Assembly: GCA_963706735.1 (NCBI GenBank)
Contig: CAVPNQ010000161.1
Location: 14,756 to 78,755 of the forward strand
Length of the DNA: 64,000 nt
Source of the DNA: an uncultured Planctomycetia bacterium
Lineage (GTDB): Bacteria; Planctomycetota; MHYJ01; WSZJ01
Reading direction: 5' to 3'
How positions within the stretch are numbered: the first letter of the stretch is position 1; every line of letters begins with the position of its first letter. A model generated the notes under the pieces. That model was not told the DNA's origin. It saw nothing but the letters and a program-made list of their open reading frames with translations, and ran no database searches. Positions 7,214 to 63,231 of this stretch are shown here, one piece after another. The position numbers were made by a program, and so were the translations under genes.

Positions 7214-8260
7214 ATGCCCCTCCGCACCCGCCGCCGCGACCGCGGCATCGTCCTCCTCCTCGTCATGCTCATCCTCATGGTCCTGAGCGTCGTCGTCCTC
7301 CAGCTCGCCTTCAGCGCCGGCGTCGCCCAGCGCGCCGCTTCCAACCTCTCCCGCGACCTCCAGAACATGAAGGCTCTCACCAGCGGCCTGTCGATCGCCC
7401 GCCTCATGATCAAGGCCGACATCGAGGGGGATCTTGCGGAAGCGCCGACGCCGCCGCTCGACCACCTGGGCGAATCGATGATGCAGGACATCGCGCCGTA
7501 CCGCTTCAATGACGGCGGTACGGACGCGACGTCGCTCTACATCAAGATTGAGGACGAGGAGGGGAAGTACTACCTGCCGGCGCTGATCGACGCGAACGGC
7601 GCGGTGGTGGAGGACGAGAAGGAGAGGCTCGTCCGGATGCTCGAGTACGCGGGAATCGGCGATCCGGACACGCCGGACCGGATCGTGGCGGCGCTCGACA
7701 AGGACGACAAGAACGCGTTCGACAAGGAAGTGCCCAACCGGAAGCTGTACACGCTGAAGGAACTGCTCGGCGTGCCGGGGATCACCGACGAGATGTACTA
7801 CGGGAAGACGGTGGCGGGGGAGAAGCAGTACGGGCTGGCGGACATCATGTCGCTGTACGGTTCCGGCAAGGTGAACATCAACACGGCCCCCAAGCCCGTG
7901 CTCATGTCGCTCTCGACGTCCATCAGCGCTTCCGATGTAGACGGCATCGTCTCCGCCCGGGAGTCTTCCGACGACGAGGGCAACCCGGAGGTGTTCCAGA
8001 GCACTTCGTTCGAGGAACTGAGCCGGAGCGGGATGACAGAAGAGACGTACGCGACGGTTTCGGGGCGGATTGCGGTGCGTTCGAGCTGGTTCCGGTCGCG
8101 GATGCTGGCGCGGACGGGGAGTGTGCAGCGGTGGGGATCGGCGGTGATCCAGCGGGTGCAGGCGTCCACGAAGCTGGTGTTGTGGGAAGACGACCTGCGC
8201 TTCGCTCCCGATCCGGAAGAACTGAAGACGCAGGAAGACGCGATCGCGACGCCGAAGTAG
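7214..8260 (+). CDS. gspK: Type II secretion minor pseudopilin GspK-like protein
   Basis: N-terminal RGIVLLLVMLILMVLSVVVLQ hydrophobic segment, plus GspK-like KVNINTAPKPVLMSL and LKELLGVPGITDEMY helix-hairpin-helix-type motifs. Confidence 0.7.
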   Translation: MPLRTRRRDRGIVLLLVMLILMVLSVVVLQLAFSAGVAQRAASNLSRDLQNMKALTSGLSIARLMIKADIEGDLAEAPTPPLDHLGESMMQDIAPYRFNDGGTDATSLYIKIEDEEGKYYLPALIDANGAVVEDEKERLVRMLEYAGIGDPDTPDRIVAALDKDDKNAFDKEVPNRKLYTLKELLGVPGITDEMYYGKTVAGEKQYGLADIMSLYGSGKVNINTAPKPVLMSLSTSISASDVDGIVSARESSDDEGNPEVFQSTSFEELSRSGMTEETYATVSGRIAVRSSWFRSRMLARTGSVQRWGSAVIQRVQASTKLVLWEDDLRFAPDPEELKTQEDAIATPK

Positions 8261-8264
8261 CTAA

Positions 8265-8601
8265 CTGCAGTTGCCAGCGGCGAGTGGCCAGCGGCCAGCG
8301 GCGAGTGGCCAGTGGCCAGTGGCCAGCGGCCAGCGGCCAGTGGCGAGCGGCAAGTGGCCAGCGGCAAGTGGCCAGCGGCCAGTGGCCAGTGGCCAGTGGC
8401 GAGCGGCAAGTGGCAAGTGGCGAGCGGCAAGTGGCGAGCGGCGAGGAGCAGGAATAGAACGCAGTCTTCGCCGGGCTGCGGCGCACTCACTCGCCGCTGG
8501 CCACTGGCAACTGGCCGCTGGCAACTGGCCACTGGCAACTGGCCACTGGCAACTGGCCACTGGCAACTGGCCGCTGGCAACTGGCAACTGGCCACTGGCA
8601 G
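8265..8601. repeat. Heptamer tandem-repeat hairpin H1: (GCCAGYG)n arm facing its reverse complement
   Basis: 8265-8447 holds about 25 degenerate heptamers (ggccagc/ggccagt/ggcgagt/ggcaagt). 8489-8601 holds about 16 complementary heptamers (actggca/actggcc/gctggca). The central spacer is about 40 nt. Confidence 0.9.
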
Positions 8602-8677
8602 TTCCCCGCGAAAGCGATTGACGGTACAACCTCGCCTCTCCTACACTACTCGGCTCCCTGCATTCCCGGAAACGCCC

Positions 8678-9427
8678 ATGCCGAGACCCCTTTTCGCCGG
8701 AAACTGGAAGCTGAACATGCTCCGGGCCGGCGCGGTGGAGCTGGCGAAGGCGCTTCGCAACGGGCTTGAGGGGGAGAAGAAGGCGGACGTGGTGGTCTGC
8801 CCCCCGTACACGGCGCTGGCGGCGGTGACGGAAGTCCTGAAGGGGACGGCAGTTGGGGTGGGCGGACAGGACCTGTACTGGGCCGACTCGGGGGCGTTCA
8901 CCGGGGAGGTGTCGGGGCCGATGCTGGCGGATCTCGGGTGCCGTTGGGTGATCGTAGGGCACTCCGAGCGGCGGCAGTTTTTCGGCGAGACGGACGAGAC
9001 GGTCGGGAAGAAACTGCGCGCTGCGCAGAAGGCGGGGCTGACGCCGATCGTGTGCGTCGGCGAACGCCTCGACGAGCGCGAACGGAACGTGACGAAAGAC
9101 GTGGTCGGGCGGCAGATCGACGGGGCCCTGGGCGGGTTGTCGAAGGCCGAGATTTCGAAGCTGACGGTCGCCTACGAGCCGGTGTGGGCGATCGGGACGG
9201 GAAAGGTCGCAACGCCCGAGCAGGCCCAGGAGGTGCACGCGTTCATCCGCGAGCGTCTCAAGGGGCTCTCAGACGAAGCGACCGCGCGGGAGGTGCGGGT
9301 GCTCTACGGGGGAAGCGTGACCCCCGAGAACGTCCGCGGCCTCATGGAGAAGCCTGATGTGAATGGCGCGCTCGTCGGCGGAGCGAGCCTGAAGGCGGAA
9401 TCGTTCCTCAAGATCGCGAGGGCCTGA
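8678..9427 (+). CDS. tpiA: Triosephosphate isomerase
   Basis: Motifs FAGNWKLN, VIVGHSERR and AYEPVWAIGTG; 249 aa. Confidence 0.95.
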   Translation: MPRPLFAGNWKLNMLRAGAVELAKALRNGLEGEKKADVVVCPPYTALAAVTEVLKGTAVGVGGQDLYWADSGAFTGEVSGPMLADLGCRWVIVGHSERRQFFGETDETVGKKLRAAQKAGLTPIVCVGERLDERERNVTKDVVGRQIDGALGGLSKAEISKLTVAYEPVWAIGTGKVATPEQAQEVHAFIRERLKGLSDEATAREVRVLYGGSVTPENVRGLMEKPDVNGALVGGASLKAESFLKIARA

Positions 9428-9428
9428 C

Positions 9429-9767
9429 ATGACTGCGCTCGTCGTCATCATGACCGTCGTCTTCGTCCTGGCCTGCCTGGCCGTGACGTTCCTTGTCCTC
9501 ATCCAGCCGCCGCACTCCGACGGCGGCTCGGGCCTCGCGGGCGCCTTCATCGGCTCCGGCGGCGACTCGTTCTTCGGCACCAAGGCGATGACCATGGCGG
9601 GGAAGATCACGATCTTCCTGTCGGTGCTCATCGTCGCGCTCGCCATCACGATCAACAAGATCGGCGTCTCACAGCAGAAGGCCGGCGTCCTCCAGGGCAC
9701 GAAGATCGACGCACCCGCCGGAACGCCCGAGAAGCCTGCCGAAAATCCCGAGAACACCCCGAAGTAG
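9429..9767 (+). CDS. secG: Preprotein translocase subunit SecG
   Basis: Two-TM small protein with a Gly-rich loop (GSGLAGAFIGSGGDSFFG), in the conserved position directly after tpiA. Confidence 0.85.
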   Translation: MTALVVIMTVVFVLACLAVTFLVLIQPPHSDGGSGLAGAFIGSGGDSFFGTKAMTMAGKITIFLSVLIVALAITINKIGVSQQKAGVLQGTKIDAPAGTPEKPAENPENTPK

Positions 9768-9780
9768 GAGCCAGCCGCCC

Positions 9781-10659
9781 GTGCGCAGCATGACCGGCCA
9801 CGGACAGGCCCGCTCTCACGACGCGAAAGACGCCGTCGAGGTCGAAGTCCGCAGCGTCAACCACCGCTTCCTCAAGGTCCACTCCCGTCTCCCCGATGCC
9901 TTCGCCTACCGCGAGGGCGAAATCGAGGAACTCGTCCGCGAAACGCTCAAGCGCGGCGCCGTGGACGTCGATATCCGCGTGACCAGCGCCCCCGACGAAG
10001 CCGCCGAACCGTTCGACGTCGAACTCCTCGGCGTCTATCACAAGAAACTCAAGGCCGCAGGCAAGAAGCTCGGCGTGACAACCAAGGTTCCCCTCGAAGC
10101 CCTTCTCACCCTCCCCGGCGTCATCAAGCGCGAGTCAGGCAAGAGCGGCGCGGAACGCGTTTGGCCGAAGGTCGCCAAGGCCGTGAAGGAAGCGCTGAAG
10201 GACCTGGAAGCGGCGCGGAAGCGCGAGGGCGAGCGGCTGAAGAAGCCGCTGAAGGCGATCCTCGCGGAGATGGCGCGGCTGCTGTCGGAAGTCGGCTCGC
10301 TGGCGCCCGCGGTCGTCGAGCAGTACCGCGACCGGCTGAAGGAGCGGATCGCCCGCCTGCTGTCGGGGAACGACCCGCCGATCCCCGCGCCCGACCTGGG
10401 CCGCGAGGTGGCGCTCTTCGCAGACCGCTGCGACATCAGCGAGGAAATCGCACGTCAGGAGTCGCATCTCAAGGAATTCGACAACCTCATGGCGTCGGGG
10501 GACGACCCCGGCCGCCGTCTGGATTTCATCAGCCAGGAAATGCTGCGCGAAGCGAACACGATGGGCTCGAAGGCGAACGACGCGCGGCTGACGCAGCGGA
10601 TCGTGTCGATGAAGGCGGAGATCGAGAAGCTCAAGGAGCAGATTCTCAATATCGAATGA
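9781..10659 (+). CDS. yicC: YicC-family stress-induced protein
   Basis: N-terminal RSMTGHG, a long helical middle region, and a C-terminal DUF1732-like EMLREANTMGSKAND motif. Confidence 0.9.
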   Translation: MRSMTGHGQARSHDAKDAVEVEVRSVNHRFLKVHSRLPDAFAYREGEIEELVRETLKRGAVDVDIRVTSAPDEAAEPFDVELLGVYHKKLKAAGKKLGVTTKVPLEALLTLPGVIKRESGKSGAERVWPKVAKAVKEALKDLEAARKREGERLKKPLKAILAEMARLLSEVGSLAPAVVEQYRDRLKERIARLLSGNDPPIPAPDLGREVALFADRCDISEEIARQESHLKEFDNLMASGDDPGRRLDFISQEMLREANTMGSKANDARLTQRIVSMKAEIEKLKEQILNIE

Positions 10660-11240
10660 GCGGGAAGGCTCACGAAGGGAGGCTCATCGTCATCTCCGGC
10701 CCTTCCGGGGTCGGCAAGACCACGATCTGCCATGCCCTTCGAGGACGCGGACGGATCGTGCGCTCGGTCAGCTCGACGACCCGCGCGCCACGGCCCGGCG
10801 AGGTGAACGGACGGGACTACTTCTTCCTGACGCGTGAAGAGTTCGTGGCGAAGCGGGAGAAGGGCGGATTCCTGGAGTGGGCCGAGTACGCGGGGAACCT
10901 GTACGGGACCCCGAAGGACTTCATCGAGGAGCAGACGCGGGCCGGCAATTTCCCGCTTCTGGAAATCGAAGTGCAGGGGGTCGAGCAGTTGAGGAAGCAG
11001 GGCTGGCCCGGCGTGTACGTGTTCATCGCGCCGCCGTCGGTGGACGACCTTCGGAAGCGGCTCGAGGGGCGCGGGAACATGCCTGCGGACGTGATCGAGA
11101 GACGGATCAAGGTGGCGGAGGAGGAATTGAAGCGGAAGGACCTCTACGATTTCGCGGTCGTGAACGACACGGTGGACCGCGCGCTCGCCGAAGTCCTGGA
11201 AATTCTGGACACGAAACTCAAAGTGAGGAGCCATCCGTGA
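10656..11240 (+). CDS. gmk: Guanylate kinase
   Basis: P-loop ISGPSGVGKTT, the SSTTRAPRPGEVNGRDYFF motif, and an ATGA overlap with yicC. Confidence 0.95.
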   Translation: MSGKAHEGRLIVISGPSGVGKTTICHALRGRGRIVRSVSSTTRAPRPGEVNGRDYFFLTREEFVAKREKGGFLEWAEYAGNLYGTPKDFIEEQTRAGNFPLLEIEVQGVEQLRKQGWPGVYVFIAPPSVDDLRKRLEGRGNMPADVIERRIKVAEEELKRKDLYDFAVVNDTVDRALAEVLEILDTKLKVRSHP

Positions 11241-11464: not shown

Positions 11465-11493
11465 CGCATTCCGCGGCGCGGAGCGCCGCCCCG

Positions 11494-11580
11494 TTCCCGT
11501 GCGCGTGCCCGTGCCCGTGCCCGGCCGTTCCGTGCAAGCAACGGCCGGGCACGGGCACGGGCACGGGCACGCGCACGGGG
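11494..11580. repeat. Hexamer tandem-repeat hairpin H2: (GTGCCC)3 facing (GGGCAC)4
   Basis: cccgtgcgc-gtgccc x3-ggccgtt / loop ccgtgcaagc / aacggcc-gggcac x4-gcgcacggg. No U tract follows. Confidence 0.85.
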
Positions 11581-11614
11581 CGTCGCTTTGCGGTGCTCGT
11601 GACACGGAGGGCTC

Positions 11615-12190
11615 GTGACGGTCCCGGCCAAGCGCATCGTCATCGGCGTCTGCGGCGGCATCGCCTGCTACAAGGTGTGCGATGTCGTGTCGCTGCTTTA
11701 CCAGAAGGGCTTCGACGTCACCGTCATCATGACCGAGGCGGCGCAGAAGTTCGTGAGGCCCTTCACGTTCCAGACGCTCTCGCACAAGAAGGTCTACACG
11801 GACCTCTTCGACGAAACGCAGCACGACCCGAGCCACATCTACCTCGCCGACAACGCGGACCTGTTCCTCATCGCGCCGGCGACGGCGGACATCATCGCGA
11901 AGCTCGCGGTGGGGATCGCCGACGACCTGCTCTCGACCTGTGCGCTGGCGCTCAAGGCGCCGCTCATGCTCGCGCCGTCGATGAACGACAACATGTGGAG
12001 CCACGCGACGGTGAAGACGAACCTCGCGACGCTGGGATCGCGCGGGGCGCTCGTCGTCGCGCCCGACTCCGGGTACCTCGCGTGCGATCGGGTCGGCACC
12101 GGGCGGCTGCCCGCGCCGGACGTCATCGTCGCCGCGGTCGAGAAACTGCTCGGGCCGGGGCCGGGGCGCGCGTTCACCGCCGGGAAATAG
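11615..12190 (+). CDS. coaC: Phosphopantothenoylcysteine decarboxylase (CoaC domain as a separate ORF)
   Basis: Flavoprotein motifs IVIGVCGGIACYK and LIAPATADIIAKLA. Ends ...TAGK-TAG. Confidence 0.85.
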   Translation: MTVPAKRIVIGVCGGIACYKVCDVVSLLYQKGFDVTVIMTEAAQKFVRPFTFQTLSHKKVYTDLFDETQHDPSHIYLADNADLFLIAPATADIIAKLAVGIADDLLSTCALALKAPLMLAPSMNDNMWSHATVKTNLATLGSRGALVVAPDSGYLACDRVGTGRLPAPDVIVAAVEKLLGPGPGRAFTAGK

Positions 12191-16224: not shown

Positions 16225-16448
16225 GGGTTGCGCGTTGGGAGTTCCGGAAGTTGAGTTCGGGGTTCGGAGTTCAGCGTTCAGGGTTCGGTTGGGGTTTCGA
16301 GTGCGTTCGTGGTCCGGAGTTCCGGGACGGCCGGGAAGCCGACCCCCAACTCACCCAACAACCCCCCACCCCCAACTCCAAACCGAACCCCAAACTCCGA
16401 ACTCAGAACCCCGAACTCAACTTCCGGAACCCCAACCCTCAACCCCCT
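16225..16448. repeat. Palindromic intergenic element H3 with GTTCGGR-type repeat arms
   Basis: The left arm ...gagttccggaagttgagttcggggttcggagttcag... pairs with the right arm ...ctcagaaccccgaactcaacttccggaacccc... The centre is about 60 nt. Confidence 0.85.
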
Positions 16449-63036: not shown

Positions 63037-63231
63037 GGGTGGCCGGGAGGGGAAACGGCAAACGCAAAAGGGAGAACCCTCAAGCAAACGACAAAGGGCA
63101 AACGACAAGACAGGCAGTTCGTCGAATGGCTTGCCGGGTGGCGTCAGCCGTGAATTTTGTTCTCTGTTTTGCCTTTGGCGTTTGGTTTTGCGTTTCGCGG
63201 TTTTGAGTTTGCCTTTTCGAGCCCACGCACC
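63037..63231. repeat. Palindromic intergenic element A3 (A family, + orientation)
   Basis: Colinear with A1 over its whole length. The core caagacaggcagttcgtcgaatggcttgccggg lies at 63106-63138. Confidence 0.9.

Follow-up and report, generated by a model that had tools for sequence, protein, structure and literature searches.

A large heptamer-armed hairpin between a T2SSK-like gene and tpiA in a planctomycete, probably a gene-less member of a foldback-type family associated with PF05635 genes

The spacer between a T2SS protein K-like gene and tpiA in an uncultured Planctomycetia bacterium holds two long arrays of tandem heptamers in inverted orientation, which raises the question of what this structure is and how it came to lie there. 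The locus is part of a window of 64,000 nucleotides, meaning the whole stretch of DNA that was analysed, from the source genome G000 (5.3 Mb, 67% GC, 203 contigs, 82.6% complete). It comprises the following features:

7214-8260, plus strand: upstream gene, T2SS protein K-like, from the ORF list (Pfam PF03934, E = 1e-06), kept in 7 congeners
8258-8260, plus strand: TAG stop codon of the T2SSK-like gene, from the ORF list
8268-8447, no strand assigned: left arm, a 5-nt lead-in (CAGTT) followed by 24 good and 1 decayed GGC(C/G/A)AG(C/T) heptamers
8448-8489, no strand assigned: 42-nt centre without repeats, itself containing a small hairpin; it occurs nowhere else in the genome and does not resemble the centre of the G003 orthologue
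8490-8601, no strand assigned: right arm, 16 complementary heptamers, chiefly CTGGCCA and CTGGCAA alternating as a 14-mer
8618-8647, plus strand: promoter-like TTGACG-18-TACACT ahead of tpiA (1 found versus 0.0 expected in shuffles)
8678-9427, plus strand: tpiA, triosephosphate isomerase (Pfam PF00121, E = 3e-96)
9429-9767, plus strand: secG (Pfam PF03840)

The original prediction of a non-coding hairpin of about 25 versus 16 heptamers, with a centre of about 40 nt and lying between gspK-like and tpiA genes, was borne out by reading of the sequence, by TRF and by an in-phase parse (24-25 and 16 units, with 42 nt between the arrays), and the predicted flanks agree with the Pfam matches of the T2SSK-like gene and tpiA; its non-coding nature is likewise supported. 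The left-arm heptamers proper span 8273-8447 (24-25 units in the in-phase parse), and TRF reports 24.0 copies of period 7 at 8268-8435 with 81% matches; for the right arm it reports 14.9 copies of period 7 at 8497-8600, or alternatively a period of 14 at 93%. Parsed in phase, the good left-arm units are GCCAGCG (seven), GCCAGTG (six), GCAAGTG (five), GCGAGCG (four) and GCGAGTG (two), and the right-arm units are CTGGCAA (seven), CTGGCCA (five), CTGGCCG (two), CTCGCCG (one) and CTGGCAG (one). The variants GCAAGTG and GCGAGYG are private to the left arm, and CTGGCAA, amplified as part of the 14-mer, is private to the right arm. The arms, with an overall complementarity of 82%, yield 30 inverted pairs, the longest of 122 nt, with complementarities of 75-85%, and can pair in at least 25 registers whose offsets are multiples of 7 nt, as expected from the earlier claim that pairing is possible in many registers. 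The longest exact repeats within the array are 41 nt (direct) and 16 nt (inverted). Folding yields a strong hairpin as RNA (minimum free energy of -260.7 kcal/mol, versus -184.7 +/- 6.1 for shuffles; z = -12.4) and as DNA (z = -9.6 versus shuffles). Comparison of array lengths confirms that no array of this kind in the window is larger; across the genome, only one heptamer array exceeds the left arm in length.

The hairpin occupies the terminator slot between the T2SSK-like gene and tpiA: it lies 7 nt past the upstream stop codon, and 16 nt separate it from the promoter-like site of tpiA and 76 nt from the ATG of that gene. A search for canonical terminators gave 0 terminator-like sites in 8100-8800, and the sequence following the right arm, GTTCCCCGCG, contains no U-tract. 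A comparison of sense and antisense fold stability across 46 co-directional hairpins of the genome gave an even split (23 versus 23, p = 0.8), and because the two folds are equally stable there is no sign of selection at the RNA level. The RNase III gene rnc is present in the genome, and read-through RNA may fold at this site and then be stabilised or cut by RNase III. No Rfam 15 model matched above its gathering score, the sub-threshold matches being to plant miRNA precursor models only, which are generic long hairpins.

Within its own genome, the tpiA-spacer hairpin is ordinary. Tandem arrays detected across the whole genome (TRF score of 40 or more) include 246 of period 7, versus 95 of period 6, 13 of period 8 and a single one of period 5. 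Of the period-7 arrays, 54% fall outside the crude gene calls, which cover 81.5% of the genome. Inverted partners, defined as lying within 450 nt and scoring above the 99th percentile of random controls, accompany 148 of 397 merged period-7 arrays, giving approximately 83 heptamer-armed hairpins, of which the one in the tpiA spacer is the largest. The gene calls were made by a crude GC3-based ORF picker, for which distances to stop codons are reliable and distances to start codons are not. Between co-directional genes, the hairpin lies at a median of 14 nt past the upstream stop codon (76% within 25 nt), with approximately 50 nt from hairpin to the next gene's crude start; between convergent genes, it lies at a median of 9 nt from the nearer stop codon. 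Two more heptamer-armed hairpins are found in the window, at 16252-16435 (GTTCGGG/CCGAAC-type) and 63060-63210 (AAAACGC/GTTTTGC-type).

The hairpins of G000 belong to several unit families, which include AAACGAA/TTTTCGT, GAGTTCG, GAGTTGC, GGCSAGY (the family of the tpiA-spacer hairpin), GGGCTGT, ACGGGAG and others. Polarity is constant within each unit family and, for GGCSAGY, alike in every pair; this was taken from a strict regular-expression census of arms, which under-counts degenerate arms and was used for polarity only. GGCSAGY arrays occur at about 30 loci in G000, with more in four congeners, so that the family is present in 5 of the 8 genus genomes. The AAACGAA/TTTTCGT family numbers approximately 25 copies, whose arms are uniformly 37 nt long and enclose a variable hairpin rich in GC, in the order ggccagg-(AAACGAA)5-GC-rich hairpin-(TTTTCGT)5-cctggcc and with unrelated centres (e.g. 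C38:23402-23493 and C149:20784-20891). With its A-rich arm, GC hairpin and T-rich arm, it looks like a two-way intrinsic terminator. Some arms enclose other cargo. At G000:C72:6918-7391, GGCSAGY arms surround no IVP gene (see below) and instead a 108-aa double zinc-ribbon ORF (L011:291-614), whose Pfam zinc-ribbon matches are weak and below the cut-offs. At G000:C91:60212-60608, GGGCTGT-type arms enclose a tRNA-Met(CAT) with its own flanks (L012:395-467); on C17, this arm family surrounds an IVP gene.

The gene order around the tpiA spacer is kept in 7 congeners, and the orthologous spacer of every congener contains a hairpin of some kind followed by the TTGAC...TACACT promoter-like motif. The spacer of G003, whose flanks are 87-92% identical, also holds a GGCSAGY hairpin, but its arms number only about 7 and 4 units and its centre is unrelated. 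The spacer of G002 holds a GGGGGTA/CCCTACC heptamer hairpin; that of G004 holds a GGGTAGG-type outer hairpin with a second heptamer hairpin nested within; and those of G001, G005 and G006 hold short GC hairpins only. Three distinct arm families thus fill the tpiA spacer across the congeners. As to whether relatives carry the same unit at this site, G003 does, but the others have different heptamers or GC hairpins. The nested palindromes of G004 (L004, G004:C22) consist of an outer GGGTAGG/CCTACCC pair whose loop holds a GTGCCTY/RAGGCAC hairpin.

Comparison of the two GGCSAGY spacers shows that a copy of the family sat in the tpiA spacer before G000 and G003 diverged and that its arm lengths have changed in place, by at least 17 and at least 11 units since the split. 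Because G003 has about 7 and 4 units, and because each arm in G000 has private variants, slippage or unequal exchange appears to have acted independently on each arm, and this independence accounts for the purine-purine mismatches in the stem. The original prediction had read replication slippage from the unequal copy numbers, an idea that explains the size of the arms but does not explain the origin of the element, which belongs to a dispersed family and has arms of a kind that frame PF05635 genes.

Rapid replacement at gene junctions is also evident elsewhere in the window. The spacer at 11465-11629 contains a hexamer-armed hairpin (CCCGTG/CACGGG), and in five other congeners the orthologous site is filled by a tandem-repeat hairpin that differs from species to species (six species with G000), the one in G001 belonging to the AAACGAA family; in G006, the orthologous site is empty, the genes being parted by stop-GC-ATG only. 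The junction at 10657-10683 is empty in G000 and filled in four congeners, by heptamer hairpins in G003 (GGTGGTY) and G002 (GGGTAGG) and by other palindromes in G004 and G001. In G002, the GGGGGTA family occupies all three junctions.

Many such arms frame genes for the 23S-rRNA intervening-sequence protein (IVP, PF05635), a small four-helix bundle with 7 genes in G000 and 56 in the genus. Inverted tandem-repeat arms (score of 18.5 or more) flank 37 of the 50 genus IVP genes examined, and with slightly different margins 28 of 30 are armed; among 300 random small G000 genes used as a control, 2 (0.7%) have such arms. The arms are mostly of period 7, with some of period 6, 8, 10 or 12. A PF05635 gene lies between GGCSAGY arms in G003 (L037), G005 (L024), G006 (L038) and G001 (L050), and each of these loops contains a promoter-like site of its own. 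In a maximum-likelihood tree, the GGCSAGY-armed IVPs form one clade (93/97 support) except for the G006 copy, which stays unresolved, and other arm families likewise track IVP protein clades. One syntenic pair aside, the GGCSAGY-armed copies have non-homologous flanks, suggesting that gene and arms moved together; recurrence of the same IVP-plus-arm unit at non-homologous loci thus points to movement of the family. Several other IVP clades consist of syntenic orthologues, and part of the correlation between arm and protein is therefore due to vertical inheritance. Gene-bearing counterparts exist for the GAGTTCG hairpins (G000 C141), the GGGCTGT hairpins (G000 C17, whose arm is longer than any other heptamer array of the genome), the GGGGGTA hairpins (G002, L032) and the ACGGGAG hairpins (G002, L026). 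No GGCSAGY-armed IVP gene was found in the 82.6% complete G000, whose 7 IVP genes have other arms. The G005 locus (L024, G005:C197:6830-7780) has GGCSAGY arm modules in plural on both sides, two on the left and three on the right, all sharing one short flanking sequence; the arms are multiplied or nested.

The association extends beyond the genus. PF05635 genes are present in 67 of 121 sampled Planctomycetota, and inverted tandem arrays, mostly of heptamers, frame IVP in 24 of 29 Planctomycetota loci, from genomes of 39-73% GC. A tblastn search against plasmids found IVP homologues chiefly in Nostoc, Calothrix and Anabaena. Arrays were counted as framing the IVP gene in 6 of the 8 plasmid loci fetched from other phyla; those named as framed are from Calothrix, Anabaena, Gemmatirosa and Azospirillum, with Riemerella at 18.0, just below the threshold of 18.5. 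The plasmid arms are heptamers, but octamers in Gemmatirosa. The Picosynechococcus and Stanieria plasmid loci have shorter mirrored heptamer runs (scores of 14.5 and 15.0), and in the Nostoc PCC 7120 locus an array is present on a single side of the IVP homologue. Two heptamer-armed four-helix-bundle genes lie within plasmid-borne CRISPR-Cas operons, between cas10 and cmr3 in Picosynechococcus (L102) and between cas6 and cas4 in Anabaena sp. 90 (L104). The best PDB match of the GGCSAGY-armed IVP is 2GSC (E = 2e-21), which is XCC0516 of Xanthomonas campestris. In that genome, bccP and XCC0516 are separated by GGGAATC repeat #15, which overlaps the annotated XCC0516 start (Rehm et al. 2015 supplement, PMC4692102).

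The tpiA-spacer hairpin is probably a gene-less foldback-type palindromic element with GGCSAGY arms, belonging to a family in which the loop of a complete copy contains a promoter and a PF05635 gene; it would itself be a non-autonomous or decayed copy. Sequence comparison establishes that it belongs to the family, that it is older than the G000/G003 split and that arms of this kind are associated with IVP genes. A simple internal-deletion derivative was considered and rejected, since the centre resembles neither the IVP-bearing elements nor any other copy. Such an element would fill a slot that in three congeners is held by a plain GC hairpin, and since the split from G003 replication slippage or unequal exchange would have lengthened each arm independently, giving 24-25 units on the left, 16 on the right and the present imperfect, 82%-complementary palindrome. 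Read-through RNA of the upstream operon would form an interrupted duplex of approximately 110 bp, which might stop 3' exonucleases or, in the manner of rRNA intervening sequences, be a substrate for cleavage by RNase III. Candidate agents of spread are the IVP protein itself and hairpin-driven template switching. More tentatively, and with rather less confidence, inverted heptamer arrays, whether or not they enclose a PF05635 gene, might constitute one widespread bacterial foldback class, in which an Avd-like IVP recognises its own arms and promotes their spread or maintenance; such a class could be the common source of the heptamer SSR excess (Xanthomonas GGGAATC and cyanobacterial STRR), of ORF-bearing rRNA intervening sequences and of hairpins such as this one.

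Other explanations can be weighed against this evidence. The structure could have been selected by the host for its RNA, as a U-tract-less terminator, 3'-end stabiliser or RNase III site parting the pilus/T2SS-like operon from tpiA-secG, the repeat arms being merely an easy way to a long stem. Its position 7 nt past the stop codon and just ahead of a conserved promoter-like site would suit such a role, as would the presence of a hairpin here in every congener, the tendency of hairpins to hug stop codons genome-wide and the resemblance of the AAACGAA family to a two-way intrinsic terminator. We nonetheless regard selection by the host as unlikely, in view of the missing U-tract, the lack of strand asymmetry in fold stability and a length of 345 nt that far exceeds the needs of a terminator; hairpins have also been inserted between genes that abut in the relative G006, and so look tolerated rather than needed. 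A purely local origin, which was the reading first given to the locus, would have a terminator hairpin acquire a short repeat and slippage expand both arms, with no link to a mobile element. The unit variants private to each arm, the large difference in copy number from G003 and the unique centre are all compatible with such a history, but it leaves unexplained why GGCSAGY occurs with constant polarity at about 30 other places in G000 and in four congeners, why three arm families share the tpiA spacer among congeners, and why GGCSAGY arms frame IVP genes at non-homologous sites; these observations make it quite improbable.

It is also conceivable that the arrays are putative binding sites for IVP or a nucleoid protein, with hairpin potential as a by-product. 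That arm families track IVP clades, and that period 7 recurs across phyla despite differing unit sequence and GC content, would be expected of binding arrays, but the tracking is partly vertical inheritance and periods of 6, 8, 9 and 10 occur too, so that we give this explanation little credence. Least credible of all is an assembly artefact, in which repeat reads were collapsed, expanded or mis-joined in a short-read MAG. The genome is indeed a MAG of 203 contigs, but with the longest exact self-repeats at 41 nt (direct) and 16 nt (inverted), longer k-mers or reads are unambiguous; moreover, GGCSAGY is found at the same site in the independently assembled G003, and comparable arrays are found in many other genomes. 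A TpiA-based search for another assembly carrying the locus found none.

If the hairpin is a gene-less element of this family, two sets of observations come together. To our knowledge, neither a function nor an origin has been established in about 30 years for 23S rRNA intervening sequences and the S23p/PF05635 proteins, and the over-representation of heptamers, known since 2007, has been catalogued in Xanthomonas and cyanobacteria without explanation. The hairpin family connects the two, its arrays being either empty or wrapped around a four-helix-bundle gene, and thereby gives bacterial heptamer repeats a candidate origin. No published link between PF05635/S23p and heptamer repeats or STRR was found in the literature searched. 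The turnover of heptamer-armed elements at gene junctions is fast between sister species, and their position at the borders of operons, where they may define the ends of transcripts, matters for genome annotation. Binding of the protein to the repeats, processing by RNase III and mobilisation become experimentally approachable.

Among known systems, REP/REPIN sequences and MITEs resemble the hairpin family as short, dispersed, non-coding extragenic palindromes near gene 3' ends, and terminal inverted repeats, small size, lack of coding capacity and many dispersed copies are MITE traits that all hold for it. The difference is that its arms are tandem arrays of variable length and its centre is not conserved. 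A REPIN model was dropped, as the RAYT Y1 transposase (PF01797) has 0 matches in G000 (82.6% complete). No transposase with matching ends was found, the parent-like copies encoding a four-helix-bundle protein only, which counts against a MITE. No target-site duplication was seen at the tpiA-spacer copy, and the empty sites in relatives are too diverged for junctions to be read; GCAGTT, present at both ends of the hairpin, was rejected as a target duplication, since its letters belong to the palindrome.

A second comparison is with the ORF-bearing 23S rRNA intervening sequences, in which a terminal-inverted-repeat stem is cut by RNase III and the loop contains the S23p ORF (PMC4990558). In Coxiella burnetii, for example, the intervening sequence lies in helix 45 and has an S23p ORF and a 28-bp stem of unique sequence, and a selfish or mobile origin of these sequences has been proposed, but never demonstrated (PMC4990558). 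The spacer hairpin shares with them a long inverted-repeat stem and, in its complete relatives, a PF05635 gene in the loop. It differs in having a 42-nt centre with no ORF, in lying between protein-coding genes and in having arms that are tandem arrays, whereas the Coxiella stem is of unique sequence. It was rejected as a true rRNA intervening sequence, as it does not lie in rRNA, where such sequences interrupt helix 25 or 45 of the 23S gene; the 23S genes of five congeners, compared in the absence of an assembled 23S gene in G000, are approximately 2990 nt long with no large insert.

The heptamer repeats of other bacteria provide a further parallel. Xanthomonas campestris contains 186 GGGAATC heptamer arrays, of which 70 are convergent inverted pairs, and the repeats also occur in X. 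axonopodis; the Xanthomonas arrays have 2-26 units, 70-75 cases are inverted pairs that could fold into stem-loops, and they are mostly intergenic, on average 28 nt past the upstream ORF, and vary in length and sequence among close relatives (Rehm et al. 2015, PMC4692102). The tpiA hairpin fits this description, consisting of tandem heptamers that are convergent, intergenic and nearer the upstream ORF end. By contrast, GGCSAGY has no run of three G, so that no G-quadruplex is expected, and several unrelated unit families coexist in the G000 genome. Rehm et al. made no connection of the GGGAATC repeats to a protein-coding cassette (PMC4692102). For the excess of heptamer SSRs in bacteria, polymerase slippage is the sole suggestion attributed to Mrazek et al. 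2007, as cited in that study. The heptanucleotide STRR repeats of the heterocystous cyanobacteria Calothrix and Nostoc (cited in PMC4692102) are likewise dispersed tandem heptamers, and inverted heptamer arrays frame four-helix-bundle genes on plasmids of Calothrix, Anabaena, Stanieria and Picosynechococcus. STRR are usually described as direct arrays, with few inverted pairs reported for the Nostoc GGGGAYT class.

The last comparison is with the eukaryotic foldback elements, which differ from the GGCSAGY element in their kilobase scale and in having a P-superfamily transposase and target-site duplications, neither of which was found for it. The classic FB elements of Drosophila have long inverted terminal arms with tandem repeats. 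In the foldback-like Galileo element of Drosophila, the inverted arms lengthen via expansion of tandem repeats, and many copies consist of arms only (PMC4168063). Long and often unequal inverted arms built of tandem repeats, together with many copies that have no coding segment, are what these elements and the hairpin family have in common.
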